Part shown: one piece after another, positions 9,206-61,830 of the stretch
Layout of the letters: each line of letters starts with the position of its first letter
Position numbering within the stretch: position 1 is the stretch's first letter
Source of the DNA: Candidatus Omnitrophota bacterium
GTDB lineage: Bacteria > Omnitrophota > Gorgyraeia > Gygaellales > Profunditerraquicolaceae
DNA length: 64,000 bases
Assembly: GCA_026387405.1 (NCBI GenBank)
Contig: JAPLLV010000025.1
Span: forward strand, 44,009 to 108,008
Direction of reading: 5' to 3'
Position numbers and translations under genes: made by a program
The notes under the pieces: generated by a model
Databases searched by the model: none
Told to the model about the DNA's origin: nothing
What the model saw: the letters and a program-made list of their open reading frames with translations, nothing else

Positions 9206-9958
9206 ATGACAAAGGAAAAGATCATTGTAGTAATGCCGGCGTATAATGCCGAATTGACTTTAGAAAAGACCGTAAAAGATATACCCCCCGGTAGCGTGGA
9301 TGAGATTATTTTGGTGGATGATGGTAGCGAGGATAATACTGCGGGAATTGCTCGGCGATTGGGGCTTTGTGTATTTACACATCCCAAAAATCTCGGCTAT
9401 GGCGCAAACCAGAAGACCTGTTATAAGCTGGCATTAGAAAGCGGGGCTGAATATGTAATAATGATCCATCCCGATTATCAATATGATGCGCGCCTTATTC
9501 CCTCCGCTATTAAGATATTAAAGATTGGGGTTTGCGATATCATTCTTGGTAACCGGATTAGGACGAGAGAAGAATGTTTATCTCACGGAATGCCCCACTA
9601 CAAGTATTTCGCAAATCGGACCCTTACAATTATTGCAAATGTCTGTCTTGGACAAAACTTAGGAGAATTCCATTCTGGTTTTCGCGCTTACCGTAGAACG
9701 GTATTAGAAACAATCCCTTTTGAGCGTAATTCAAACGGTTTTGTTTTTGACGCACAGTTTTTGGTACAAGCTGTTCATTTTAATTTTACCTTAGGAGATA
9801 TTCCTATGCCAGTGCGTTATTTTAAAGAAGCATCTTCGATTAATTTACATAGGGGCACTATTTATGGATTGCAATTTCTATGGGTATTGATAAGTTACTA
9901 TCTCTATCGGCTAAAGTTAATGAAATCTACTCTTTTTATCCCGAAGAGTAGTATTTAG
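9206..9958 (+). CDS. GT2 polyprenyl-phosphate sugar synthase (Dpm1/ArnC/GtrB-like)
   Basis: VVMPAYNAE…VDDGSEDNT, DxD-type GT2 core, C-terminal TM helix ([15 protein letters not shown]). Classic lipid-linked donor-synthase partner for GT-C enzymes. Confidence 0.8.
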
Positions 9959-10142
9959 ACTATACAAAAACATTATGGGAACATATTCATAAATGGTTCT
10001 AGAAAGCCATAAGTACCTTATATATTTTAAAAAAACATATTCGACATCTTGACAAATTAACAAGAATGTTTTGAAAACCGCGTTCAGCGAGCCCGATAAC
10101 CGCAGAATGTCTAACATATACACACTGAAAGGAGGTAATCCA

Positions 10143-26856: not shown

Positions 26857-28305
26857 ATGAAGGTATTATTGATTACGACTCCGTATAAGAGTAAGGCGTA
26901 CAGGGTATTGAACAAAAGAATTCCTGCGACGCTTCCTTTTTTAGGCATCGCATATGTGGCGGCGGTCCTCGAGCGGGAAGGTATCCCCGTTCGGTTGTTA
27001 GACGCATGGGGTAGAAATCTAGGTTTTGAAGATATCCGCAAAGAGATTGCCGCCTTTCGTCCGGATATAATCGGCATCACCTGTACGGCAAGTGCATTTG
27101 GGGTCAGCGTAGAGTTGGCAAGGAAAATCAAGGATTGTGCAAAGGATATCACTATAGTCTTGGGAGGGCCGTATGTTTCGGCCATTCCCGAAGAAACTCT
27201 GCGTGAAATACCCTGGGTCGATGTGGTAGTGATAGGCGAGGGCGAACATACCATGCTGGAGTTGGCGCAAGCCAATCCTTTACATGCAATCAAAGGGATT
27301 GCCTATCGTTCAGGAGGCCGCATCTTGGTTAATGAGCCCCGGCCCCTCATATACAACCTCGATGCGTTGCCTTTTCCTGCCAGGAATTTTTATCGCATGG
27401 CTGATTACCGCCGCCCTTTTTACGAATTCCACGGAACACCGTTTGCATCCATCGTCACAAGCAGGGGATGCCCTTTTAAATGCCGATTCTGCGCGTCGCA
27501 TACCGTGGCCGGCAGGGAAATACGCCTGAGGAGTATCCCAAATATTATTAAAGAGATTGATATGCTCCTTGAGCGATATAAAGTCAGGTTTATCAGCATA
27601 GCTGATGACGCGCCGGTATTTACCATGGACGAAGCGCGCCTGAGTGAATTTTGCCGGGCGATCAAGGGGAAAGGATTTCTTTGGGGAGCCAAGGCGAGGG
27701 CTGATTCAATCAATGAAAATAACCTTAGGATGCTTAGGGATGCGGGATGCAGAATACTTGAGATCGGCTGTGAGTCGGGCAATCCGGGCATATTGGAGGG
27801 ATGGGAAAAGGGAGTTTCCGTTACTCAGATCAAAAATGCCTTCAGGCTCATGAACAAATTCGGGATAAATTCCGTGGCGATGTTTATGCTGGGTGCTCCT
27901 GCCGAAACAAAAGAGACGGTGCTTGGTACGATACGGTTTGCCAAAGAACTCGGAGCAACGTATTGCATTGCCAGAATACTCTATCCTTATCCTGGCACGG
28001 AAGCCTATGCTGATCTCAAAGCGCAAAAGATGCTGCATTCGAAAAGCTGGGATGAGATCAGGTATCCGCAAAGCGGAGATTCTATCCTTGTGCATCCGAA
28101 TTCAACCACCAGCGAGCTATGCCTGCCAAATCTGACCTTTAACCAGTTGCTTAGACTGCAAAGGCGCATGCACAGGGATTTTTATTTGAATAAACGGTAT
28201 ATATTCTCTACGTTATCAAGATTAAAAGATTGGCATGCCGTTAAGGTATATGGCAGGCTCTTGATTGGTGTGGTGCGTTTTTGGTTCAGGTGGGGTTTAC
28301 AGTAA
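26857..28305 (+). CDS. cobalamin-binding (class B) radical SAM enzyme
   Basis: VLGGPYVSAIPEE; VTSRGCPFKCRFCASH. Start chosen at ATG 26857 (MKVLLITTPY); TTG 26830 and ATG 26833 are alternatives. Confidence 0.8.
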   Translation: MKVLLITTPYKSKAYRVLNKRIPATLPFLGIAYVAAVLEREGIPVRLLDAWGRNLGFEDIRKEIAAFRPDIIGITCTASAFGVSVELARKIKDCAKDITIVLGGPYVSAIPEETLREIPWVDVVVIGEGEHTMLELAQANPLHAIKGIAYRSGGRILVNEPRPLIYNLDALPFPARNFYRMADYRRPFYEFHGTPFASIVTSRGCPFKCRFCASHTVAGREIRLRSIPNIIKEIDMLLERYKVRFISIADDAPVFTMDEARLSEFCRAIKGKGFLWGAKARADSINENNLRMLRDAGCRILEIGCESGNPGILEGWEKGVSVTQIKNAFRLMNKFGINSVAMFMLGAPAETKETVLGTIRFAKELGATYCIARILYPYPGTEAYADLKAQKMLHSKSWDEIRYPQSGDSILVHPNSTTSELCLPNLTFNQLLRLQRRMHRDFYLNKRYIFSTLSRLKDWHAVKVYGRLLIGVVRFWFRWGLQ

Positions 28306-37050: not shown

Positions 37051-38040
37051 ATGAAAACCGTTGGATTAACCTACGATTTAAAGACAGATTACAAATTTAA
37101 AGAAGGCGATCCGCAGGATGCCAACGCGGAGTTCGACCATCCTTCGACTATCGGCGTTATTGCCAAGGCCATAGAGTCGCAGGGGTACAAGGTAAAGAAG
37201 ATCGGCAATGTCACGGATGTACTGGAAAAATTAGATAACCTGGGAGTGGATATCGTTTTCAATATTTCCGAGGGCCTCTCGGGCAGGAACCGCGAATCCC
37301 AGGTGCCGATCTTGCTAGAGATGGCCGGTGTTCCTTTTGTGGGCGCCGACGCGCTTACCCTTGGCCTTACGCTCGATAAGATCATGGCCAAAAAAATATT
37401 TATCGCCGAAAAACTACCTACCCCGAAATTCTTTACGGTCAATACCGTGGAAGAACTGAATAACGCCGACCATTGTAAATTCCCCCTTATTGTTAAACCG
37501 CGATTCGAGGGTTCTTCCAAGGGCTTAAGCGACAGCTCGCGCGTGGAGAATATGGAAGAGTTAAAGATACAGGTAGAGCATACAATCTCCACCTATAAAC
37601 AGCCTGCCCTGATAGAAGAGTTTATCTCCGGCCAGGAATTTACCGTGGCCGTGGTTGGTAATGATCCCCCCGAAGCCCTGCCCGTGGTCCAGATAAAGAT
37701 CGACGGCAAGTTACAGTTGAACGATAAATTCTATACCTTTGCCAGAATAAAATCAGACAGGCTGGAATATATCTGTCCTGCTAAGATCCCCACGGAACTG
37801 AAGAACAAGCTTCAGGATCTAGCCGTCAGGACATATAACGCGGTTGAGTGCCGTGATTTCGGGAGGGTGGATTTCAGGGTGGATAGCGACGGTAAACCTT
37901 TTGTCTTGGAGATCAACCCTTTGCCCTCGCTCTCTACCGAAGACGTGTTTATGCTCTTGGCCAAGACAATAGGGATCACCTACGAAGAGATGCTTGACAA
38001 GATCCTGAAGGCAGCCTTAAAAAGGCACAATCTTAATTAA
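37051..38040 (+). CDS. D-alanine-D-alanine ligase-family ATP-grasp enzyme (copy 1)
   Basis: Ddl-like layout: N-terminal domain, then LIVKPRFEGSSKGL, the ATP-grasp lysine/Gly-rich loop, and C-terminal LEINPLPSL. Confidence 0.7.
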   Translation: MKTVGLTYDLKTDYKFKEGDPQDANAEFDHPSTIGVIAKAIESQGYKVKKIGNVTDVLEKLDNLGVDIVFNISEGLSGRNRESQVPILLEMAGVPFVGADALTLGLTLDKIMAKKIFIAEKLPTPKFFTVNTVEELNNADHCKFPLIVKPRFEGSSKGLSDSSRVENMEELKIQVEHTISTYKQPALIEEFISGQEFTVAVVGNDPPEALPVVQIKIDGKLQLNDKFYTFARIKSDRLEYICPAKIPTELKNKLQDLAVRTYNAVECRDFGRVDFRVDSDGKPFVLEINPLPSLSTEDVFMLLAKTIGITYEEMLDKILKAALKRHNLN

Positions 38041-38049
38041 AGGTATTAA

Positions 38050-39057
38050 ATGAAGATCGCGCTTACCTTTAACCTTAAAAAGAAAGACTCAACCAAACCG
38101 GCGGATTATTTTTCCGAGTTTGATTCCGAAGAGACCGTTGATGCGATCCGGGGCGCCCTGTACAAAAAAGGCCACAGCGTGGACCTGGTCGAGGCGCATC
38201 AGCAAAACCTGTTTTCTTATTTCCGGGATAACCGCGTGGATATGGTTTTTAACATTGCCGAAGGCACTTGCGGCAGGTTCCGCGAATCGGAGATCCCGGC
38301 CATACTGGATTATCTGGAAGTGCCTTACACCGGCTCAGACACATTTTCCCTGGCCCTGGCCTTAAATAAGGCCCTGACCAAAAAGATACTGCAGGCGGAA
38401 AATATTCCCACCCCGCGTTTCCAACTTTTCACTAAAGGTAACGAAGAGTTAAACCCTGACTTGATCTTTCCTTTGATCGTCAAGCCTAATTGCGAAGGCT
38501 CGGCCAAAGGCATCAATGCCGCTAATGTGGTACGCGACGAGAGCGCGCTTTTTAGAAAAGCGCGGGAGATAATAAAGGTTTATAGACAGGAGGCGCTGGC
38601 CGAGGAGTTCATTGAAGGGAAAGAACTAACGGTGGGTATCCTGGAAAACGGCAAGACCACGATCCTGCCGATACTGGAGATCGATTTTTCAAGCTGCGAA
38701 GGGAGCGGAGAGTATTTTTATTCCTGGAGGATGAAGGAATATCAGGGTGACGAACAGCAGAGGCTCACGCCCACTTTTCACTGCCCGGCGCGCCTGGATA
38801 AGGATACTGAAAGGCGCGTAAAAGAGGTGGCACTCAAGACCCATCACGCGGTGGGATGTCTAGATATCTCCCGTACCGATATACGTTTAAGCCGCGATAA
38901 CATCCCGTATGTCCTTGAGATAAATCCTTTGCCCGGGCTCGATCCCAAGGAATCTAATCTTCCCCTCATGGCCTATGCCGCGGGCATGAAATACGAAGAC
39001 CTTATTGAAGCGATCCTTATAAGCGCTGCTAAGCGTAAGAAAGCGGGGCTCAATTGA
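38050..39057 (+). CDS. D-alanine-D-alanine ligase-family ATP-grasp enzyme (copy 2)
   Basis: Paralogue of the upstream gene (LIVKPNCEGSAKGI; LEINPLPGL). Separated from it by 9 nt. Confidence 0.7.
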   Translation: MKIALTFNLKKKDSTKPADYFSEFDSEETVDAIRGALYKKGHSVDLVEAHQQNLFSYFRDNRVDMVFNIAEGTCGRFRESEIPAILDYLEVPYTGSDTFSLALALNKALTKKILQAENIPTPRFQLFTKGNEELNPDLIFPLIVKPNCEGSAKGINAANVVRDESALFRKAREIIKVYRQEALAEEFIEGKELTVGILENGKTTILPILEIDFSSCEGSGEYFYSWRMKEYQGDEQQRLTPTFHCPARLDKDTERRVKEVALKTHHAVGCLDISRTDIRLSRDNIPYVLEINPLPGLDPKESNLPLMAYAAGMKYEDLIEAILISAAKRKKAGLN

Positions 39058-40232
39058 CGAACGCGACCATAACCGAGGTTCAAAAGCTCCAGCCTGATGC
39101 GCCTGTCCGTAGATCCCAGCGGGCTCGCGATTACCAGCAGATAAGCCTGTATAAAGACGTTAATCCCCTGGATTGGGAGGATTGGCACTGGCAGCTCAAA
39201 AATAGGATCTGCACCAAGGAAGACCTTGCCCAGGTGATAGTTTTGAGCCCCGAAGAGGAAGAGGGCTTAAAAAAGGCAAGCGGAAAACTTTCTTTGGCCA
39301 TTACCCCATATTGGGCGACTTTAATGGACCCCGAAGATCCCAATTGTCCTATCCGGCGCCAGGCCGTGCCTACGGTGTACGAAACGCTTGTCGGTCCCCA
39401 CGAAATGGTTGATCCTTGCGCCGAAGACAGGGATTCTCCCGCCCCGCACCTGGTGCACCGTTATCCGGACAGGGTCTTGCTCCTAGCTACCGAACATTGC
39501 GCGATGTATTGCCGCCACTGCACCAGAAGGCGCCTTGTGGGGGAGACCAATAAAGAGGATAACTCGCCTTCCCGTTTTGATGCGGCTTTAGAATATTTAA
39601 AAGCGAACAAAAAGGTGCGGGATGTTTTGATCTCCGGGGGCGACCCGCTTACCCTGGAAGATGACGTAATCGAGGATCTGCTGCGCAAGATCCGCGACAT
39701 ATCGCATATTGAGTTCTTAAGGCTGGGTACGCGCGTGCCGGTGACATTGCCGCAGCGCATCAATGAGAAATTGGTTACCATGCTTAAGAAATATAACCCG
39801 CTCTGGATGAGTATCCATTTTAACCACCCCAAGGAGATAACCAAACGTTCTAAGATCGCCTGCGAAATGCTGGCAGATGCCGGTATCCCGCTGGGGAGCC
39901 AGAGTGTGCTCTTAAAAGGCATTAATGACCGTCCTTATATTATGAAGAAGCTGGTGCATGATTTATTGCAGATAAGGGTGCGGCCGTATTATATTTATCA
40001 GTGCGATCCCGTCCGGGGCACGCAGCATTTCCGCACCCCGGTTGCCGTAGGCATCAACATTATGGAGAAGCTGCGCGGCCATACCTCGGGCTACGCCGTG
40101 CCTACCTATGTCATTGACGGCCCCGGCGGCGGCGGAAAAATCCCCGTAGGCCCCAATTATATCCTTTCGCAGGCCAAAGGTAAGTACGTGCTCCGCAATT
40201 ACAAGGGTAAGATCTACACTTATCTGGAATAA
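39054..40232 (+). CDS. kamA: lysine 2,3-aminomutase (KamA-family radical SAM)
   Basis: HRYPDRVLLLATEHCAMYCRHCTRRR matches the KamA CX3CX2C region. The C-terminal half is KamA-like. TTG start overlaps the upstream stop (TTGA). Confidence 0.8.
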   Translation: MTNATITEVQKLQPDAPVRRSQRARDYQQISLYKDVNPLDWEDWHWQLKNRICTKEDLAQVIVLSPEEEEGLKKASGKLSLAITPYWATLMDPEDPNCPIRRQAVPTVYETLVGPHEMVDPCAEDRDSPAPHLVHRYPDRVLLLATEHCAMYCRHCTRRRLVGETNKEDNSPSRFDAALEYLKANKKVRDVLISGGDPLTLEDDVIEDLLRKIRDISHIEFLRLGTRVPVTLPQRINEKLVTMLKKYNPLWMSIHFNHPKEITKRSKIACEMLADAGIPLGSQSVLLKGINDRPYIMKKLVHDLLQIRVRPYYIYQCDPVRGTQHFRTPVAVGINIMEKLRGHTSGYAVPTYVIDGPGGGGKIPVGPNYILSQAKGKYVLRNYKGKIYTYLE

Positions 40233-40242
40233 GTTTTTCCGC

Positions 40243-40271
40243 TTGACCCTCCCCAATGGTTGGTATATAAT
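40243..40271 (+). promoter_or_regulatory. sigma70-like promoter
   Basis: TTGACC at 40243-48, 17 nt spacer, TATAAT at 40266-71. About 115 nt upstream of the EF-G-like ATG, which has an AAGGAG SD. Confidence 0.5.
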
Positions 40272-40387: not shown

Positions 40388-42346
40388 ATGGAGCCTAAAG
40401 ATAAACGTAATTTTATCCTCTTGGGCCATGCCCAGTCCGGTAAAACCACGCTTTCTGAAAGTATCCTCTATTTAGCTAAGGCAACCAGCCGTAAAGGCAC
40501 TACCGCAGATGGTAATACGGTAAGCGATTACAATTTTGACGAGATTGAAAAAAAGAGCTCCATAAACGCCAGCCTGCTCTATTGTGATTATAAAGGCACG
40601 AGGATCCAGATGATCGATGCCCCCGGTTACGCGGATTTTTTAGGCGAGGTTATTTCCGGCTTACGCGCGGTAGATAGCGCGGTAGTGATAGTAGACGCGA
40701 CCGCGGGAGTTGAGGTAGGGACAGAGCGCGCCTGGCAGTTCCTGGAGGAATTCTCCCTACCCTGTATTATTTTCATTAATAAGACGGATAAACCCGAAGC
40801 CGATGTAAATAAGACCTTGTCGGATATCAAGTCGCGCTTTTCAAAGAGCGCGATGGTGGTCGATAAGCTTGACGCCCCGGAGTTAGTAGAGGCTATTGCC
40901 GAAAGCAATGATTCACTGCTGGAAAAATATTTAGAGGGTAAGGCCTTAACACCCGAAGAATTAGTTTCAGGGTTGCGTAAGGCGGTATTCGGCCGCAAGG
41001 TCTTTCCCGTAGTGATAGGTTCGGCCTCAACCGATAAAGGGGTAGCGGAGTTACTCGACCATGTTATAAAATATCTGCCGAATCCCCTGGAGCGCCAGCC
41101 TATCAAGGCGCGGCAGGCGGATAAACCGGATAGCGAGCAGGAATTAGCCTGTAGCGCAGACGGTCATCTAGCCGCCTTTGTCTTTAAGAATATTTCTGAC
41201 CCCTATGTGGGGCAGTTGACATTTTTACGTATTTTTTCCGGCACCCTGGCTTCGAACACCGCCTTTCACAATGTTAATAAAGAAACCAAAGAGCGCATCG
41301 GCACTATCTACATTATGCAGGGCAGAGAGCAAAAAGCCGTGGATACCGCCAGCTGCGGTGATATCGTGGCCCTGGCAAAATTAAAAGGGACCGCTGCTTC
41401 GGATTCCATCGGTAATGATAAGGGCCGCGTTATTTTTGAACCGATGGTATTCCCTGAACCGGCTATCTCGGCTTCGGTAAAGCCAAAATCGCGCGAAGAC
41501 GAAGAGAGGATTTCCGAGGCCCTACATAAATTAGCTGCGGAGGATCCTACTTTCAAGGTCACCCATGACCCCCAGACCAAGGAATTGATCATTTCAGGGC
41601 TAGGCGATCAGCACCTGGCGGTTATGGTAGGCAGGCTGCAAAAGCGTTTCAAGGTTGAAGTCGAACTTGGCAAGCCCAAGGTTTCCTATAAAGAGACGAT
41701 TACTAAGAGCGTCAAGGTGCAGGGAAAATTCAAACGTCAGTCAGGGGGCAGGGGCCAATACGGGGATGTCTGGATCGAGATCGAGCCTTTAGGACGGAGT
41801 GAGGGTTTTGAGTTCGTGGATAAGATTTTCGGCGGGGCTATCCCCAGGAATTTTATCCCCTCGGTTGAAAAGGGCGTGGTCAATGCCTTGGTTCAAGGGG
41901 CAGTTGCCGGTTATCCGATAGTTGATGTGCGGGTGAGGCTGGTAGACGGCTCATACCATGAGGTGGATTCCTCGGATATGGCTTTTCAGATCGCGGGGGG
42001 CATGGCTCTAAGAAAAGCCGTGCTTGCCGCCGGGCCCGTATTATTGGAGCCGATCATGGATGTAGAGATAACCATCCCGGAGGAGTGTTTGGGCGCAATA
42101 TCCGGAGATGTTAATTCCCGGCGCGGACGGATCATGGGTATGGATGTTAAAGCCAAATCCCAGATTATCAAGGCCACCGTTCCATTGTCGGAGATGTTTA
42201 CCTATGCCAATGATCTACGTTCCCTTACCGGGGGAAGAGGGACTTATATCATGCGTTTTTCGCATTACGAAGAGGTGCCGCACAAACAAGCCTCGACCAT
42301 TATCAGCCAGTATCAGGCCTCCAGGAAGCCCGAAGAAGAACAATAA
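40388..42346 (+). CDS. EF-G-family translational GTPase paralogue (divergent; switch-II His replaced)
   Basis: All EF-G domains are recognisable: G domain, domain II, and domains IV/V with SGGRGQYGDVWIE. G1 is GHAQSGKTT, switch I lacks RGITI, and switch II reads DAPGYADF instead of DTPGHxDF. G4 is NKTD. Confidence 0.75.
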   Translation: MEPKDKRNFILLGHAQSGKTTLSESILYLAKATSRKGTTADGNTVSDYNFDEIEKKSSINASLLYCDYKGTRIQMIDAPGYADFLGEVISGLRAVDSAVVIVDATAGVEVGTERAWQFLEEFSLPCIIFINKTDKPEADVNKTLSDIKSRFSKSAMVVDKLDAPELVEAIAESNDSLLEKYLEGKALTPEELVSGLRKAVFGRKVFPVVIGSASTDKGVAELLDHVIKYLPNPLERQPIKARQADKPDSEQELACSADGHLAAFVFKNISDPYVGQLTFLRIFSGTLASNTAFHNVNKETKERIGTIYIMQGREQKAVDTASCGDIVALAKLKGTAASDSIGNDKGRVIFEPMVFPEPAISASVKPKSREDEERISEALHKLAAEDPTFKVTHDPQTKELIISGLGDQHLAVMVGRLQKRFKVEVELGKPKVSYKETITKSVKVQGKFKRQSGGRGQYGDVWIEIEPLGRSEGFEFVDKIFGGAIPRNFIPSVEKGVVNALVQGAVAGYPIVDVRVRLVDGSYHEVDSSDMAFQIAGGMALRKAVLAAGPVLLEPIMDVEITIPEECLGAISGDVNSRRGRIMGMDVKAKSQIIKATVPLSEMFTYANDLRSLTGGRGTYIMRFSHYEEVPHKQASTIISQYQASRKPEEEQ

Positions 42347-42379
42347 CCAAAAGCTTTATTATAATAAGGATAAAACAAA

Positions 42380-43081
42380 ATGAAGATAAGCGTATTTTCT
42401 ATCTCTACTCTTACGCCGGGGAAATATAATATCAAGGACCAGCGCCTTGACGCCGTGGACAAAATAGTCAAGGCCAAGAAAAAAACCTATGTGCAGGTGG
42501 AGGTGGTCGGAGCGGAAGCGGTATTCGAAGCAGACGCGCTTCTGGCGCTTGAAGATATGCGTTCGGACCTGATCCTAAGGGACCTGGAGTTCATAGAGAC
42601 GCGCCTCGGCCGTTGCGGCGATGAGAAGGAAAAAGGACTTTTGCTCAAACTTAAAGGGATCCTGGAGAAAGAGCAGTTTCTTTTTAGCGCCGGCTTGGGG
42701 GAAGAAGAAATCCAGTCCATGGCAAGCTATAGTTTGGTAACCTTAAAACCGGTTGTTATGGCCAGGCAGGAAGAGACGGATAACCCCAATGATCTATTGG
42801 CCAGGGCCCTCAGAGAAAGCGGGTATTTGAGTTTTTTTACCGCCGGGGAGAAAGAGACGCGCGCCTGGTTGATCAGAAAAGGGACTTCTGCCTGGGAGGC
42901 CGCGGGGGTAATACATTCAGATATCCAGAAAGGGTTTATCCGCGCCGAGATCATCGGTTACGATGATTATATTAATGCCGGCGGCGAGACTCCGGCCAAG
43001 CAGCAGGGGAAGATGCGCCTGGAGCAAAAAGAATATGTGATGCAGGATTGCGATCTGGCGAATTTTAGGTTTAACAAATAA
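42380..43081 (+). CDS. YchF/Ola1-like protein lacking the P-loop and most of the G domain (coiled-coil + TGS domains retained)
   Basis: C-terminus TRAWLIRKGTSAWEAAGVIHSDIQKGFIRAEII…GKMRLEQKEYVMQDCDLANFRFN aligns closely to the YchF TGS domain. The N-terminus starts after the position of the Walker A motif. About 50 aa around G3/G4 are also missing. Confidence 0.7.
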   Translation: MKISVFSISTLTPGKYNIKDQRLDAVDKIVKAKKKTYVQVEVVGAEAVFEADALLALEDMRSDLILRDLEFIETRLGRCGDEKEKGLLLKLKGILEKEQFLFSAGLGEEEIQSMASYSLVTLKPVVMARQEETDNPNDLLARALRESGYLSFFTAGEKETRAWLIRKGTSAWEAAGVIHSDIQKGFIRAEIIGYDDYINAGGETPAKQQGKMRLEQKEYVMQDCDLANFRFNK

Positions 43082-43092
43082 AGATAATTGAA

Positions 43093-43168
43093 AGTCATTG
43101 CGAGGAGGCCGAAGGCCGACGAAGCAATCCCTAAAACGTGATTGCTTCGCACTTCGTGCTCGCAATGA
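43093..43168. repeat. small palindromic repeat element, intergenic copy (TIRs GTCATTGCGAG / CTCGCAATGAC, inner hairpin)
   Basis: Terminal inverted repeats plus an internal stem CGAAGCAATC-loop-GATTGCTTCG. A second copy lies in-frame inside folC at 45127-45270. Confidence 0.5.
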
Positions 43169-43190
43169 CAACAGATAATAGGGGGACAAG

Positions 43191-44783
<1,593 letters not shown>

Positions 44784-44831
44784 TGAGTATATCGCAACGA
44801 TAAGCGATTAGCGATATGCGATAAGCAAATA

Positions 44832-46361
44832 ATGACCTACCCCCAAGCCATTCAATACCTGGGAGGCTTCATCAACTATGAAAGGCTTCTTGACTGGCCG
44901 TATAAAGAATCTCTCCAGTTAGACCGATTCAAGATTTTCCTGGAAACAATAGGTAATCCTCAACTTTCCTTGCGTTGTATCCACGTCGCCGGCTCAAAAG
45001 GCAAGGGTTCTACCTGTGCTTTTATTGCCTATATATTGCGCCAGGCAGGTTTTAAAGTCGGTCTCTATACCTCGCCGCACCTTTCGGATTTCAGGGAGAG
45101 GATCAGGATATTGGCTCCTTCAAGGTTGTCATTGCGAGGAGCGATAGCGGTTGCGAGGCGAAGCCGAAGCAAACCAGCAGCCTGCGATAGATGGGATTCC
45201 TCGCTGCGCTCGGAACAGGCTGCGCAATCTCTAAAACGTGATTGTTTCGCCCCTTCGGGGCTCGCAATGACAGAGAGAATGGTTTGTGAGTTTGAAGGAA
45301 TGATCTCCAAGAGAGGCCTGGCAGCATTGGTAGCCAGATTAAAACCAGCCATAGATGTTTATAACAAGAGTTCGGAATACGGGCCGCTCTCATCTTTTGA
45401 GGTTTATACCGCCGCGGCGTTCGTTCATTTCAAGGAAAAAAAAGTAGATTTCGCGGTCCTGGAAACGGGCTTAGGCGGGAGATTTGACGCTACAAATACG
45501 CAAGACGCCATGGTTGTGGTTATAACCCCTATTAGCTATGAGCATACCGATAGGCTCGGTAATACATTGGCCAAGATCGCAGGCGAGAAGGCCGGGATTA
45601 TTAAAAAAAGTTGTCAGTTGCCAGTTGTTAGTTGTCAGAGAATAGTTATTTCGGCGCCACAGGATAAGGAAGCGAGGGAAGTCATCAGAAATAGGTGTAA
45701 GGCAGCAAGGGCAAAGTTATTTGAAGTGGGAAGGGATTTATTGTATAAAAAAATTCAAGGTTCAAAATTCAAGGTTCAAGGCATATTTGGAGAATATGGA
45801 AATTTAAAAACCAGGCTGCTCGGCGAGCACCAGTGGGTCAATGCCGCTACTGCCATAGGGGCGATAGAGGCCTTGCGCAATTACGATATTAAAGTAAGGG
45901 CCGGTGCAATAAAAAAAGGACTTTATGATACCTTATGGCCGGGAAGATGCGAGGTTGTTTCCAGGAAACCCATTATTGTTTTAGACGGGGCCCAGAATGC
46001 AGCATCCAGTCTGGTGTTAAAAAAAGCCATATCGCAGAATTTCAAATATAAGAGATTAATCCTGGTTCTGGGAATTTCCAGTGACAAGGATATTCTAGGG
46101 ATCTGTAGGCAGATATGTCCTAAGGCAAGCGAGATAATCCTGACGCAGGCCGATAATCCCAGGGCAGCCAGCGTTAATACAATAGAAGAGGTTATCAGGC
46201 GTCAGGCGTTTGGTGCCAGGTGTTGGATTCATAAGACTAAAGATGTGCGGGAGGCGTTAAGATTAGCCAAACTGAAGGCAGCCCCTGAGGGCCTAATTTT
46301 AGTCACGGGTTCGCTGTTTGTAGTGGGAGAGGCAAGGAAACTAAGTTTATGCTTAAATTAA
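44832..46361 (+). CDS. folC: folylpolyglutamate synthase / dihydrofolate synthase (Mur-ligase family)
   Basis: HVAGSKGKGSTCAFIAYIL…YTSPHL P-loop region and the Mur-ligase C-terminal domain. Carries three repeat-derived in-frame insertions. Confidence 0.85.
   Translation: MTYPQAIQYLGGFINYERLLDWPYKESLQLDRFKIFLETIGNPQLSLRCIHVAGSKGKGSTCAFIAYILRQAGFKVGLYTSPHLSDFRERIRILAPSRLSLRGAIAVARRSRSKPAACDRWDSSLRSEQAAQSLKRDCFAPSGLAMTERMVCEFEGMISKRGLAALVARLKPAIDVYNKSSEYGPLSSFEVYTAAAFVHFKEKKVDFAVLETGLGGRFDATNTQDAMVVVITPISYEHTDRLGNTLAKIAGEKAGIIKKSCQLPVVSCQRIVISAPQDKEAREVIRNRCKAARAKLFEVGRDLLYKKIQGSKFKVQGIFGEYGNLKTRLLGEHQWVNAATAIGAIEALRNYDIKVRAGAIKKGLYDTLWPGRCEVVSRKPIIVLDGAQNAASSLVLKKAISQNFKYKRLILVLGISSDKDILGICRQICPKASEIILTQADNPRAASVNTIEEVIRRQAFGARCWIHKTKDVREALRLAKLKAAPEGLILVTGSLFVVGEARKLSLCLN
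45127..45270. repeat. palindromic repeat element, 144 bp (48 codons) copy inserted in-frame in folC
   Basis: Same terminal inverted repeats and …CTAAAACGTGATTG(C/T)TTCGC… core as the 43093 copy. Length is an exact multiple of 3. Translated as …SRLSLRGAIAVARRSRSKPAACDRWDSSLRSEQAAQSLKRDCFAPSGLAMTE…. Confidence 0.55.
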
Positions 46362-47404
46362 GTCGGTGCTTATTAGTGTTAGGAGCAAATATTCTAAGCA
46401 TCGCTTTACTCTTTTTAATAGTAGAAATTGCATACCGATTTTACAAGGATGGTTTTTGGGGGGCTATTAAAAATATAAGGGAATATTACAACGTTCCGTA
46501 CTCGAATTTAGGAACGAAAGATTGGGTTGTCTATGACAAAATCCTGGGATACAAGTTGAACTCAAAGGCTTCTTCAGACAATAAGTTGTATATAGTAGAT
46601 CAAGAGGTAATGCTGCCTAAGCCGAAGGGGGCTTACAGGATAATCTTCTTGGGCGACTCCATTCCATTTGATAACCCGAGCTTTGTTGATTATATAAAGG
46701 AAGCAACTGCTAAAAATACAAGCATAGAGATCATAAAAGCTTGCGTGCCAGGTTATACCGCTTATCAGGAACTGATGTTTATGCAGAGAGACTTAATTCA
46801 TGCTACTCCCAATCTGGTGGTATGGTGTTATTGTTTAAATGATAACCATAGATTTCTTCATAAATTTAATGTGGACGGAAAAATGCTGAGGACTCAAGAG
46901 GCAGAGGATAGTTTAAAGATTAATTCGCTTTTTGACAAAATAATAAGCAGGAGCTATGTGCTTAGTTTGATTAAAGTGCACTTAGTCGCTAAAAAGCTTG
47001 CCAGAAAAACCAGCGATTTTCCCTGGGAAGACCTCCCCGACTTTAATATCGCATGGAAAGACTATTCTTGGATAAATTATGAGGAGAATTTAAGAAAGAT
47101 GGAGCAGATTTTAGATAAAAACGGCAGTAAATTATGCATACTCATTTTTCCATTCGGACCTCAGTTAAATCCAGGGACCCTAGCATTAAATCGAGATTTC
47201 GTTTTAAAGCCCCAAGCGAAATTAAAAGAATTGTGTATGAGATATCACGTTCCTGTGCTCGACCTATTTTCTCTCTTTTATTCACTTGAGAATAAGCACG
47301 AGAAAATATTTAAAGATGATGGAATCCATCTAACAAAGCTAGGACATGAGGTTGTCTCCCAAGAGGTCATAGAATTTTTAAAAAAACAAGGTTTATTGTA
47401 TTAA
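46349..47404 (+). CDS. membrane-anchored SGNH/GDSL-family hydrolase
   Basis: N-terminal TM helix; block I RIIFLGDSIPF, block III CLNDNHR, block V DDGIHLTKLGHEVV. Confidence 0.6.
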   Translation: MLKLSRCLLVLGANILSIALLFLIVEIAYRFYKDGFWGAIKNIREYYNVPYSNLGTKDWVVYDKILGYKLNSKASSDNKLYIVDQEVMLPKPKGAYRIIFLGDSIPFDNPSFVDYIKEATAKNTSIEIIKACVPGYTAYQELMFMQRDLIHATPNLVVWCYCLNDNHRFLHKFNVDGKMLRTQEAEDSLKINSLFDKIISRSYVLSLIKVHLVAKKLARKTSDFPWEDLPDFNIAWKDYSWINYEENLRKMEQILDKNGSKLCILIFPFGPQLNPGTLALNRDFVLKPQAKLKELCMRYHVPVLDLFSLFYSLENKHEKIFKDDGIHLTKLGHEVVSQEVIEFLKKQGLLY

Positions 47405-47472
47405 TACTCCATTACGTTGAGAGAATTCGTATGCGTGTTTTACAATTTATCCCGAAGCAATAGGTAATTTTT

Positions 47473-48924
47473 ATGAGAGACGTCCTTAAGGTTATAAATT
47501 CAACCGATACCATCGCTGCAGTCGCTTCATCTTTGGGCGAATCCGGGATCGGCATCGTACGTATAAGCGGCCGGGAAGCGCTGTCTATCGCAGATAAAAT
47601 TTTTCTTTCCAAGGATAATAAAAAGCCTTCTGAATTCAGGGCCTACACCGTGCATTACGGTTGGATTATTGACCAACGACCAACGACCAACCCCGCCTGC
47701 CTAGTGATACCCGGGGCGGGCAGGGACCAACGACAAAACATAGTTGACGAAGTAATCTTGACCGTGATGCGCGCGCCGCGTTCCTATACCAAAGAGGACG
47801 TAGCAGAGATTAACTGCCACGGAGGCATCGTTGGTCTCCGTAGGGTGTTAGGTTTAGTTTTGGAGAACGGTTGCCGCCTGGCTGAGCCGGGTGAATTTAC
47901 CAAGCGCGCCTTTTTAAACGGGAGGATCGACCTTACGCAGGCAGAGGCAGTCTTAGATATAATCCGCGCCAAGACTGATTCCGCTTTGAGCTTGGGCGTT
48001 GAGCAGCTGAAAGGCGGGCTATCCAGGAAGATTAATAAATGGAGAGAAGGCTTATTGGATGCCCTTGCGACCCTGGAGGCGAGCATAGATTTTCCTGAGG
48101 AAGAACTGAACGCCGCAGGCCTTGAGGTAATTTCCGCAAGGATCGCCAAGATAAATAGCGAGATGAAGTCTATGCTGGAAAATGCAAGGTTCGGCAGGGT
48201 AATGCGCGAGGGGGTGCATACGGTTATCTGCGGCCGGCCGAATGTAGGAAAGTCTTCGCTTTTAAACGCGCTTTTAAGACAGGAGCGCTCAATTGTTACG
48301 GCAGTGCCCGGGACCACCCGCGACACTATCGAAGAGATCATAGATATAAAAGGTATTCCTGTAAGGATCGTGGATACGGCCGGGATCCTGGAGCCGCGTG
48401 ACCTGGTTGAAAGACACGCGGTCCTGCGCTCAAAAAAGCAGATTGACCTGGCGGATCTGGTGATCCTGTTGTTTGACGGCGCTCATCAGCTGACCAAGGA
48501 TGACAGGGCGTTGATAAGCAGGCTTAAGAGAAGGACGACCTTGGCGGTGATTAATAAGATAGACAAATCTCAGAAAATAGAGCGTCCATATATTGCCAAG
48601 AATTTTAAGCAGGTAGTAGAGATTTCGGCAAAGAACGGCAAGAATATCGATTTACTCGAAGATTCTATAGCCGGTATGGTCTTTAGCGGCAGGGCCGGTT
48701 CGCCGGGTGCGCTTTTTGTCGCAAATATGCGGCATCTTGAATCTATCAAAGAAGCGCAAAAACTTATTGCAGAAGCACTTAATTCGGTAGATAATGGTCT
48801 GTCCTTGGAATTCATTAGCCAGGATCTTAAGGAGGCGGTCGCCAACCTGGATAAGCTTTTAGGCAGGAGTTTTTCCGAAGATCTCCTGGATAAGATCTTT
48901 AGCGATTTCTGCATAGGGAAATAA
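47473..48924 (+). CDS. mnmE: tRNA modification GTPase MnmE
   Basis: INCHGG, G1 [15 protein letters not shown]3 DTAG, C-terminal FCIGK. A repeat-encoded insertion sits in the N-terminal domain loop. Confidence 0.9.
47671..47737. repeat. about 65 bp GC-rich imperfect-palindromic repeat element, copy in-frame within mnmE
   Basis: GACCAACGACCAACCCCGCCTGCC-(t/c)(a/g)GTGATAC-(c/a)(c/a)GGGGCGGGCAGGGAC(C/T)AACGAC. A second copy lies at 61766-61830. Encodes [21 protein letters not shown]. Confidence 0.5.
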
Positions 48925-48935
48925 GCGAGGTAAGC

Positions 48936-49493
48936 GTGGATAAGAAAAAAATAGAACATGCGGTCAAGGATATATTAGAGGCGATAGGCGAGAATCCTAA
49001 GCGCAAAGACCTGCAAGATACCCCCAGACGGGTGGCTGAAATGTATGAAGAGATTTTCGCCGGTATCGGCAAGGATCCCAAAAAAGAACTGGAGGTAATT
49101 CTTGACCAGAAGCATAACGAGATAATCCTTTTAAAGAATATTCCTTTGTATTCGATCTGTGAACACCACTTAACCCCTTTTGTGGGCAAGGCAAGCATTG
49201 CTTATATACCCAAACAGGGCCGGGTGACAGGGTTAAGTAAGCTGGCGCGCGTGGTTGATACTCTGGCAAAGCGGCCGCAGGTACAAGAACGCCTGACTAC
49301 GCAGATCGCCGAGATAGTTATGGAGAAACTCAAGCCCAAAGGTTGTATGGTGGTGTTGGAGGCCGAGCACCTTTGCATGTCTATGCGCGGAGTCAGGAAA
49401 CCCGGCACCACTACCGTGACCTCGGCGGTAAGAGGGATATTCCAGGACAATGAAAAGACGCGCGCAGAAACCCTGGCGCTATTAAAGATGTAA
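48936..49493 (+). CDS. folE: GTP cyclohydrolase I
   Basis: CEHHLTPF…GKASIAYIP and the C-terminal region typical of FolE. GTG start. Confidence 0.9.
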
Positions 49494-61765: not shown

Positions 61766-61830
61766 ACTAACGACCAACCCCGCCTGCCCGGTGATACAGG
61801 GGCGGGCAGGGACTAACGACCAACGACTAA
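61766..61830. repeat. about 65 bp GC-rich repeat element, intergenic copy immediately upstream of the accA start
   Basis: CTAACGACCAACCCCGCCTGCCCGGTGATACAGGGGCGGGCAGGGACTAACGACCAACGAC. Homologous to the in-frame mnmE copy. Confidence 0.5.

Follow-up and report, generated by a model that had tools for sequence, protein, structure and literature searches.

The 64-kb window analyzed here, a 64,000-nucleotide stretch of contig JAPLLV010000025.1 from a Candidatus Omnitrophota bacterium, encodes a 233-residue protein, designated sYchF, that is, as judged from its sequence, a minimized form of the ATPase YchF in which every nucleotide-binding or catalytic element (G1 with helix α1, switch I, G3 with switch II, the His114 loop, G4, and G5) has been lost together with the lysine-rich tip of the helical domain. 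According to the predicted structure, a sheet of five strands remains, and it connects a helical hairpin that has been shortened with a TGS domain that is intact and highly conserved. The open reading frame represents a real gene, which is under strong purifying selection and has been inherited across Omnitrophota, Verrucomicrobiota, and Lentisphaerota. We consider it likely that sYchF is a pseudo-ATPase that derives from YchF, is functional, and acts on the ribosome or on RNA via its TGS domain and helical scaffold; we are much less certain of where exactly it would bind.

Profile searches assigned residues 151 to 232 of sYchF to the YchF C-terminal/TGS domain (PF06071; E = 5.8e-35, profile positions 3 to 84 of 84). 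The comparison with TIGR00092, the NCBIfam equivalog model for YchF, which had been proposed in a first-pass annotation of this DNA, did return a YchF match, but at 131.3 bits it fell below the curated cutoff of 279.2; it was the only NCBIfam match, the short family having no model of its own. Two blocks of sYchF aligned to the YchF protein of Haemophilus influenzae (1JAL), namely, residues 52 to 130 to its residues 120 to 207 in the helical domain and residues 150 to 232 to its residues 280 to 362 in the TGS domain (91.7 bits). A hand count on the printed 1JAL alignment gave an identity of approximately 60% for the TGS domain; the TGS match described in the first-pass annotation thus stands, but calling it "almost residue for residue" was an overstatement.

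The missing parts were mapped in a MAFFT alignment of 29 diverse members of the short family (31 to 68% identity) with canonical YchFs, using the numbering of the 363-residue YchF of Escherichia coli and H. influenzae, which align to one another without gaps; for H. influenzae, the sequence matched the alignment blocks of PDB entry 1JAL. Five internal deletions, approximately 127 residues in total, were common to all 29 members. The first (residues 12 to 36, 25 residues) comprises the Walker A motif NVGKS, helix α1, and switch I (NVGKSTLFNALT... in E. coli), the second (residues 74 to 91, 18 residues) G3 (DxxG) and switch II, and the third (residues 103 to 124, 22 residues) takes in His114 of the catalytic loop, followed by the lysine-rich coiled-coil tip (residues 149 to 157, 9 residues) and by α6-β6-α7 including G5 (residues 214 to 266, 53 residues). 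At the position of the G4 motif NVNE (NxxE), the short family carries RQEE or variable residues, and a motif search for Walker A (GxxxxGK[ST]) was negative for sYchF and for every other member of the family. The N-terminal strand of sYchF, MKISVFSI, is homologous to strand β1 of YchF, MGFKCGIVG. The protein therefore does not begin after the Walker A position, as had been supposed; β1 is kept, and Walker A, α1, and switch I are removed by an internal 25-residue deletion. Nor is there one gap of about 50 residues spanning G3 and G4, in the place of which five separate deletions were found. The helical coiled-coil domain inserted into the G domain is retained, as had been noted previously and as indicated by both the 1JAL match and the predicted helices, except for its 9-residue lysine-rich tip. 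Specifically, K149, K152, and K156 of E. coli YchF are deleted in the short family, the position aligned to K159 is mostly Glu, and the remaining tip is acidic (e.g., GDEKEK), as is the protein as a whole (pI of approximately 5.3). From these sequence features, we infer that sYchF neither binds nor hydrolyzes ATP or GTP, in which case it would bind the ribosome or RNA as a stoichiometric factor that does not depend on nucleotides.

A structural model of sYchF was obtained with AlphaFold2 from a 42-sequence alignment, with a mean predicted local distance difference test (pLDDT) of 85.3 and a predicted template modeling score (pTM) of 0.73. In the model, the sheet is small and has five strands, the helical hairpin is predicted with lower confidence, and the TGS domain is predicted with very high confidence. 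Specifically, the strands of the G-domain remnant are placed at residues 2 to 6, 14 to 18, 34 to 43, and 53 to 57 (pLDDT, 81 to 95) and the helices of the helical domain at residues 69 to 78, 82 to 96, and 108 to 115 (pLDDT, 55 to 80), and the pLDDT values of the TGS domain range from 93 to 97. When the model was compared with the PDB by Foldseek, the best 15 matches were all YchF/OLA1 structures, with template modeling scores (TMq) of 0.75 for 1JAL and 0.74 for chain y of 8KIE, i.e., E. coli YchF on the 50S subunit; Rbg1/DRG (4A9A, 7RR5) and the TGS domains of Rel/RelA were far weaker matches (TMq, 0.25 to 0.43). The structure prediction that had been suggested as a check thus yielded a model that superposes on YchF structures. 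Taken together, sYchF has the domain order and overall fold in common with YchF/OLA1 (TIGR00092; 1JAL, 2DBY, 2OHF, 8KIE), the homologous parts being the N-terminal strand, the β2-helix-β3 unit, the coiled-coil insertion, and the TGS domain, but it is distinguished from YchF/OLA1 by its length (233 versus approximately 363 residues), by failing the TIGR00092 cutoff, and by the absence of Walker A/α1, switch I, G3/switch II, the His114 loop, the NxxE motif, α6-β6-α7, and the lysine-rich tip.

The sYchF reading frame begins at the first start codon past an in-frame stop codon, and the gap of 33 nt between the stop codon of the preceding elongation factor G (EF-G) gene (positions 42344 to 42346) and the sYchF start codon at position 42380 is as given in the first-pass annotation. 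Its statement that no remnant of the missing G-domain segments lies upstream was likewise borne out, as tblastn with full-length YchF as the query, run over all frames of the window, detected neither a second YchF-like segment nor a remnant of the G domain. The sole other weak match (positions 48211 to 48390) is located inside an open reading frame (positions 47473 to 48924) whose product is taken to be an MnmE homologue, judged from its place in a conserved gene order.

A word-indexed search returned 7,433 significant clusters at 90% identity matching sYchF, and the best 120 of these were 233 residues long save a handful, with identities of 64 to 100%. Where names were given, they read "DUF933 domain-containing protein" of Candidatus Omnitrophica/Omnitrophota at NCBI and "ribosome-binding ATPase YchF" at JGI/IMG. 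Searching the representatives at 50% identity exhaustively with HMMER added approximately 25 short clusters of 225 to 235 residues that matched end to end at 31 to 51% identity, two of the most divergent (37 and 31% identical) being labeled Omnitrophota; canonical YchFs of 340 to 370 residues ranked after the short clusters and matched via their C-terminal parts only. Representative hits of 209 to 270 residues were considered as possible evolutionary intermediates and rejected, being N-terminally cut fragments of canonical proteins or, in one case (P0148), a frameshifted short form. A profile made from short members outside Omnitrophota found 7,260 further clusters, mostly of 233 residues and named Verrucomicrobia where named. 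When GTDB species were scanned with one genome each, the short form was present in 32 of the 80 loci kept, and the metagenome-assembled genomes (MAGs) carrying it were labeled Omnitrophota, Verrucomicrobiota/Opitutae, Lentisphaerota (including Victivallis vadensis), or Hydrogenedentes, with a few labels seemingly inconsistent. The latter concern L034 (Methanosarcinales archaeon), L019 (Candidatus Limnocylindrales), L020 (Candidatus Acidoferrum), L024 (Deltaproteobacteria), and L062 (delta proteobacterium). Synteny at L034 is of the Omnitrophota type, and the upstream gene order at L019 is that of Verrucomicrobiae-labeled loci; L020 and L024 resemble the latter in sequence only, and L062 has no shared synteny. 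This pattern suggests misbinning or mislabeling rather than a wider distribution of the short form.

Selection was assessed against L087, the closest relative with DNA available (93% amino acid identity). The dN/dS ratio was 0.095 for sYchF overall, with values of 0.07 for the G-domain remnant, 0.09 for the helical domain, and 0.06 for the TGS domain, and 0.08 for the neighboring EF-G. The TGS domain is also the most conserved part of the family, with a mean pairwise identity of 0.49 versus 0.34 elsewhere and with most of the family-invariant residues. The more than 7,000 clusters of nearly the same length, the common set of five deletions, and the overall dN/dS ratio support the proposal of the first-pass annotation that the gene is complete and encodes a YchF homologue that would be deficient in nucleotide binding, and they indicate that the gene is functional. 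In pseudoGTPases, a P-loop NTPase scaffold remains under selection after the catalytic motifs have been lost, usually as a whole G fold with degenerate motifs. Similarly, the G-domain remnant of sYchF has a dN/dS ratio of 0.07 and a retained predicted fold in the absence of the motifs, but here the motif-bearing segments have been physically excised. No description of a P-loop-less YchF was found in the literature searched, which covered few subscription journals, so that this amounts to absence of evidence only.

For E. coli YchF, binding to the 50S subunit at uL14, bL19, and H62 has been described, chiefly by the helical domain; K149, K152, K156, and K159 at the coiled-coil tip touch H62, and the tip after α7 contributes (PMC11814078). 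The ATPase-dead variant H114A stays bound to the 50S subunit, and the authors concluded that hydrolysis probably serves release from the 50S subunit and not subunit dissociation (PMC11814078). The site is close to those of RsfS and eIF6, and a block of subunit joining was proposed; a contact of the TGS domain with h5 of 16S rRNA, as for Rbg1 and RelA, was suggested on stalled ribosomes (PMC11814078). We propose that sYchF works by occupancy and independently of nucleotides, with the TGS domain as its main functional surface, and that it would be released via competition and not via ATP turnover. The hydrolysis-independent part of the role of YchF would probably be kept, i.e., a ribosomal site would be occupied, or subunit association or stalled ribosomes would be modulated. 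By analogy to RelA and Rbg1/DRG, the TGS domain might contact the 30S subunit at h5 or in the factor-binding region. An E. coli-type contact between the lysine tip and H62 of 23S rRNA is unlikely in sYchF because the tip is deleted.

Two groups of proteins lend themselves to comparison with this proposal. A YchF without ATPase activity would, like RsfS and eIF6, act by occupancy alone, but there is no relation to them in sequence or fold, and with the contact elements of E. coli YchF partly deleted, use of the same site is not assured. DRG/Rbg1 and RelA/SpoT have the TGS domain in common with sYchF, and it contacts the small subunit or tRNA in these proteins (PMC11814078); unlike sYchF, they are active enzymes, their other domains differ, and the likeness is limited to the TGS domain. 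Several points weigh against a ribosome-directed pseudo-ATPase. Ribosome binding by sYchF is proposed by analogy, and for YchF itself the role of the TGS domain is likewise a proposal. The lysine tip and α7, both deleted, are 50S contacts in E. coli, and ribosome binding could thus be weakened or lost rather than rerouted. Model confidence for the helical domain is moderate. Finally, a canonical YchF in the same genomes would make sYchF a paralogue, perhaps with another job, e.g., that of a competitor.

The last of these points leads to the alternative that survives best, although we regard it as possible rather than probable: a canonical YchF would also be encoded, and the P-loop-less copy would hold the same target without turnover, as a dominant-negative regulator or a buffer. 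Complete loss of YchF would be unusual, since one survey (PMC12641178) scores YchF (K06942), a bac120 marker, as present in 99.4% of bacterial genomes outside the Candidate Phyla Radiation (CPR), and the 50S-bound H114A variant shows that a nonhydrolyzing form can be an occupant (PMC11814078). Such surveys may, however, count the short form as YchF, as it already bears this name at JGI. No canonical YchF was found in the window or in 442 kb flanking 39 short-form loci, and the ten canonical YchFs sampled among those closest to the short family included two with an organism name, Wallbacteria and Coprothermobacter, neither of which belongs to the Planctomycetes-Verrucomicrobia-Chlamydiae (PVC) group; both observations carry little weight. 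Moreover, with the E. coli 50S contact elements deleted, sYchF may not compete for that site.

The converse, that Omnitrophota, and possibly also much of Verrucomicrobiota and Lentisphaerota, have no YchF-type protein other than sYchF, is a possibility that we rate slightly below even. If true, the significance of the short family would be raised substantially: a near-universal ATPase would have been replaced phylum-wide by a version without a nucleotide-binding site, the conserved core function of YchF would reside in the TGS domain and the helical scaffold without ATP hydrolysis, and marker-gene and presence/absence surveys would miscount these lineages. YchF/OLA1 is among the most widely conserved NTPases, and sYchF would represent a natural separation-of-function variant of it. 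As a large, selected family in which the nucleotide-binding parts have been excised and the TGS domain is nearly unchanged, it points to the part of YchF that can function alone, and with 233 residues it offers a minimal construct for structural work on the contact between the TGS domain and its target. The split annotation (a YchF name at IMG versus a DUF933 name at NCBI) means that surveys may score the short form inconsistently.

In the first-pass annotation, sYchF and the preceding gene, read as encoding a hydrolysis-deficient EF-G, had been suggested to form a ribosome-associated regulatory module of two genes. The EF-G of the window passes the NCBIfam EF-G models, and the best PDB match of its G domain is Thermus thermophilus EF-G-2 (1WDT), with which it has GHAxSGKTTL, DAPGY(G/A)DF, and a shortened G′ subdomain in common. 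Both the residues specific for the EFG II subfamily at the P-loop, Gly16 and Leu25 (positions according to PMC3150367), and a divergent G3 are present, as LLGHAQSGKTTL aligns to LVGHAGSGKTTL of 1WDT and DAPGYADF to DAPGYGDF. The G domain resembles that of EFG II proteins (T. thermophilus EF-G-2, 1WDT/2DY1), whereas domains II to V gave 599 bits with canonical T. thermophilus EF-G and 432 bits with 1WDT. The tip of domain IV reads QYGDV in the window and QYGHV in T. thermophilus EF-G. Within DAPGY, the catalytic His is replaced by Tyr, as in T. thermophilus EF-G-2, which was reported to bind GTP, to hydrolyze it, and to be active in poly(Phe) synthesis; by contrast, ribosome-dependent GTPase activity is lacking in M. 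smegmatis EF-G-2 (PMC3150367). Because a DAPGY-bearing EF-G-2 hydrolyzes GTP, the replacement is no proof of lost hydrolysis, and the description of this EF-G as hydrolysis deficient is not supported.

Conservation of the pair was counted over distinct genomes with enough upstream sequence. Of 18 Omnitrophota-type genomes, 15 have EF-G as the gene directly preceding sYchF, at a spacing of 7 to 115 nt, and the pair is kept even in the deep relative L034 (sYchF, 38% identical; EF-G, 50% identical). In L008, L017, and L032, all Omnitrophota, the radical S-adenosylmethionine (SAM) gene, sYchF, and purH follow one another with no EF-G between them, and EF-G was found within approximately 6 kb of sYchF at none of 15 Verrucomicrobiota/Lentisphaerota-type loci. 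The conservation of the pair on which the module had been made to depend is thus seen within Omnitrophota and not beyond. By comparison, sYchF is adjacent to purH in every Omnitrophota-type locus with downstream sequence, which makes purH adjacency more constant than EF-G adjacency, and sYchF is equally well conserved where EF-G is not adjacent. A consensus scan, the only search made, found no promoter- or terminator-like site between EF-G and sYchF in the window, and cotranscription of the two genes in this lineage is plausible on these sequence grounds; with a promoter-like site only 5′ of EF-G and no intergenic terminator, a lineage-specific functional link may remain. A dedicated module, in which sYchF would cooperate with or regulate the EFG II-type EF-G next to it, e.g., by loading this EF-G onto particular ribosome states or gating its access to them, could draw on the adjacency within Omnitrophota, the uninterrupted spacer, and the binding of the RelA and Rbg1 TGS domains near the translation-factor site (PMC11814078). 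Given the loci without EF-G, the greater constancy of purH, and the unsupported claim of a nonhydrolyzing EF-G, we consider such a module improbable, and it finds no support in the form originally stated. At best, EF-G and sYchF form a lineage-specific operon arrangement, which is no defining feature of the family.

Outside Omnitrophota, the neighbors of sYchF encode UvrA, an RCC1-repeat protein, a histidine kinase, TrkH/TrkA, and HipA, i.e., functions unrelated to translation, and comparison of the flanks revealed no conserved functional neighbor across the whole family. For the pseudo-ATPase interpretation, we count this as an indication that the place of sYchF behind an EFG II-type EF-G would reflect the operon organization of one Omnitrophota lineage and would be no family feature. 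The same neighbors could be cited in favor of a role apart from translation, in which the TGS domain and helical scaffold would bind a protein or small-molecule partner; YchF/OLA1 is described as multifunctional with off-ribosome partners (PMC11814078), stress-response interactions have been reported for it, and sYchF is acidic and has lost the basic tip. We nevertheless regard such a role as distinctly unlikely, even less probable than the dedicated module, as the TGS domains of RelA, DRG/Rbg1, and ThrRS are RNA or ribosome associated and that of sYchF is under the same sequence constraints as the TGS domain of canonical YchF. A decayed or misassembled ychF, whether pseudogene, frameshifted or truncated gene, or split gene with its G domain elsewhere, might explain a score below the TIGR00092 cutoff and a length shorter than that of any canonical YchF, but is excluded for practical purposes by the identical length and five deletion boundaries at 31 to 93% identity in many independent assemblies, by dN/dS ratios of 0.07 to 0.09 in the non-TGS parts, by the lack of G-domain fragments in other frames of the window, by the confident predicted fold, and by the internal nature of the deletions, as a consequence of which a separate G-domain protein could not complement sYchF.

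Table 1. Features of the sYchF locus; positions refer to the 64-kb window
Feature	Position	Strand	Basis
sYchF gene (233-residue P-loop-less mini-YchF)	42380..43081 (including stop codon)	+	Open reading frame, PF06071, TIGR00092 (131 bits), family-wide length, dN/dS
Shine-Dalgarno-like AAGGA, 9 nt 5′ of the sYchF ATG	42366..42370	+	Read from sequence
sYchF residues 1 to 58, predicted G-domain sheet remnant (β1, β2, PDxRLD helix, β3, β4)	42380..42553	+	Alignment, AlphaFold2, dN/dS 0.07
sYchF residues 59 to 120, helical (coiled-coil) domain, tip 9 residues shorter, acidic GDEKEK	42554..42739	+	1JAL match, alignment, AlphaFold2
sYchF residues 121 to 147, β5 (LKPVVMA), RQEE at G4, linker helix, with the 53-residue α6-β6-α7 block lost before this helix	42740..42820	+	Alignment, AlphaFold2
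sYchF residues 148 to 233, TGS domain, best-conserved part	42821..43078	+	PF06071, 1JAL (91.7 bits), identity, pLDDT 93 to 97
EF-G, 652 residues, EFG II-type G domain (GHAQSGKTTL, DAPGYADF), shortened G′	40388..42346	+	Pfam, NCBIfam, 1WDT alignment, synteny
Promoter-like site TTGACC-17-TATAAT (11/12 matches), 5′ of EF-G	40243..40271	+	Consensus scan only
purH, downstream neighbor of sYchF	43191..44783	+	Synteny

The features of the locus are listed in Table 1. Omnitrophota-type loci have the order two ATP-grasp genes, a KamA-like radical SAM gene, EF-G where present, sYchF, purH, and folC, with mnmE and folE next after folC where the locus reaches far enough. In the window, two ATP-grasp ligases and a KamA/EpmB-like radical SAM protein (lysine 2,3-aminomutase family, LAM_C) are encoded just 5′ of EF-G and sYchF (positions 37051 to 40232), a block that is kept in nearly all Omnitrophota-type loci. 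EpmB makes β-lysine for the modification of EF-P in other bacteria, and a role of the block in β-lysine synthesis or in the modification of a translation factor is speculation. Downstream, a folate-related run (positions 43191 to 49493) consists of purH, folC, an open reading frame for 351 residues (positions 46349 to 47404), mnmE (positions 47473 to 48924), and the gene for GTP cyclohydrolase I (positions 48936 to 49493); relatives have purH, folC, mnmE, and folE in the same order without the 351-residue frame.

Several repeated elements were observed in and around these genes. A GC-rich, palindromic element resembling miniature inverted-repeat transposable elements (MITEs) or repetitive extragenic palindromes (REPs), with the terminal inverted repeats GTCATTGCGAG...CTCGCAATGAC, is present in two copies (positions 43094 to 43169 and 45128 to 45271). 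The first copy (76 nt) is located in the spacer between sYchF and purH, and the second (144 nt, 48 codons) lies in frame inside folC (44832..46361); FolC has 509 residues with this insert versus 442 to 463 in relatives, and at this position in folC, L087 has an insertion as well, but a smaller one. The spacer between EF-G and sYchF in L087 (positions 9884 to 10000) measures 114 nt versus 33 nt in the window, as a hairpin element, CCCGCACCTTC...GAAGGTGCGGG, has been inserted at the start codon, leaving the context of the old ATG upstream and forming a new ATG after the insert. A 37-nt direct repeat, ACCAACGACCAACCCCGCCTGCC..., occurs at positions 47679 to 47715 and 61766 to 61802 of the window (86% identity, 14 kb apart), with a weak third copy at position 27622.

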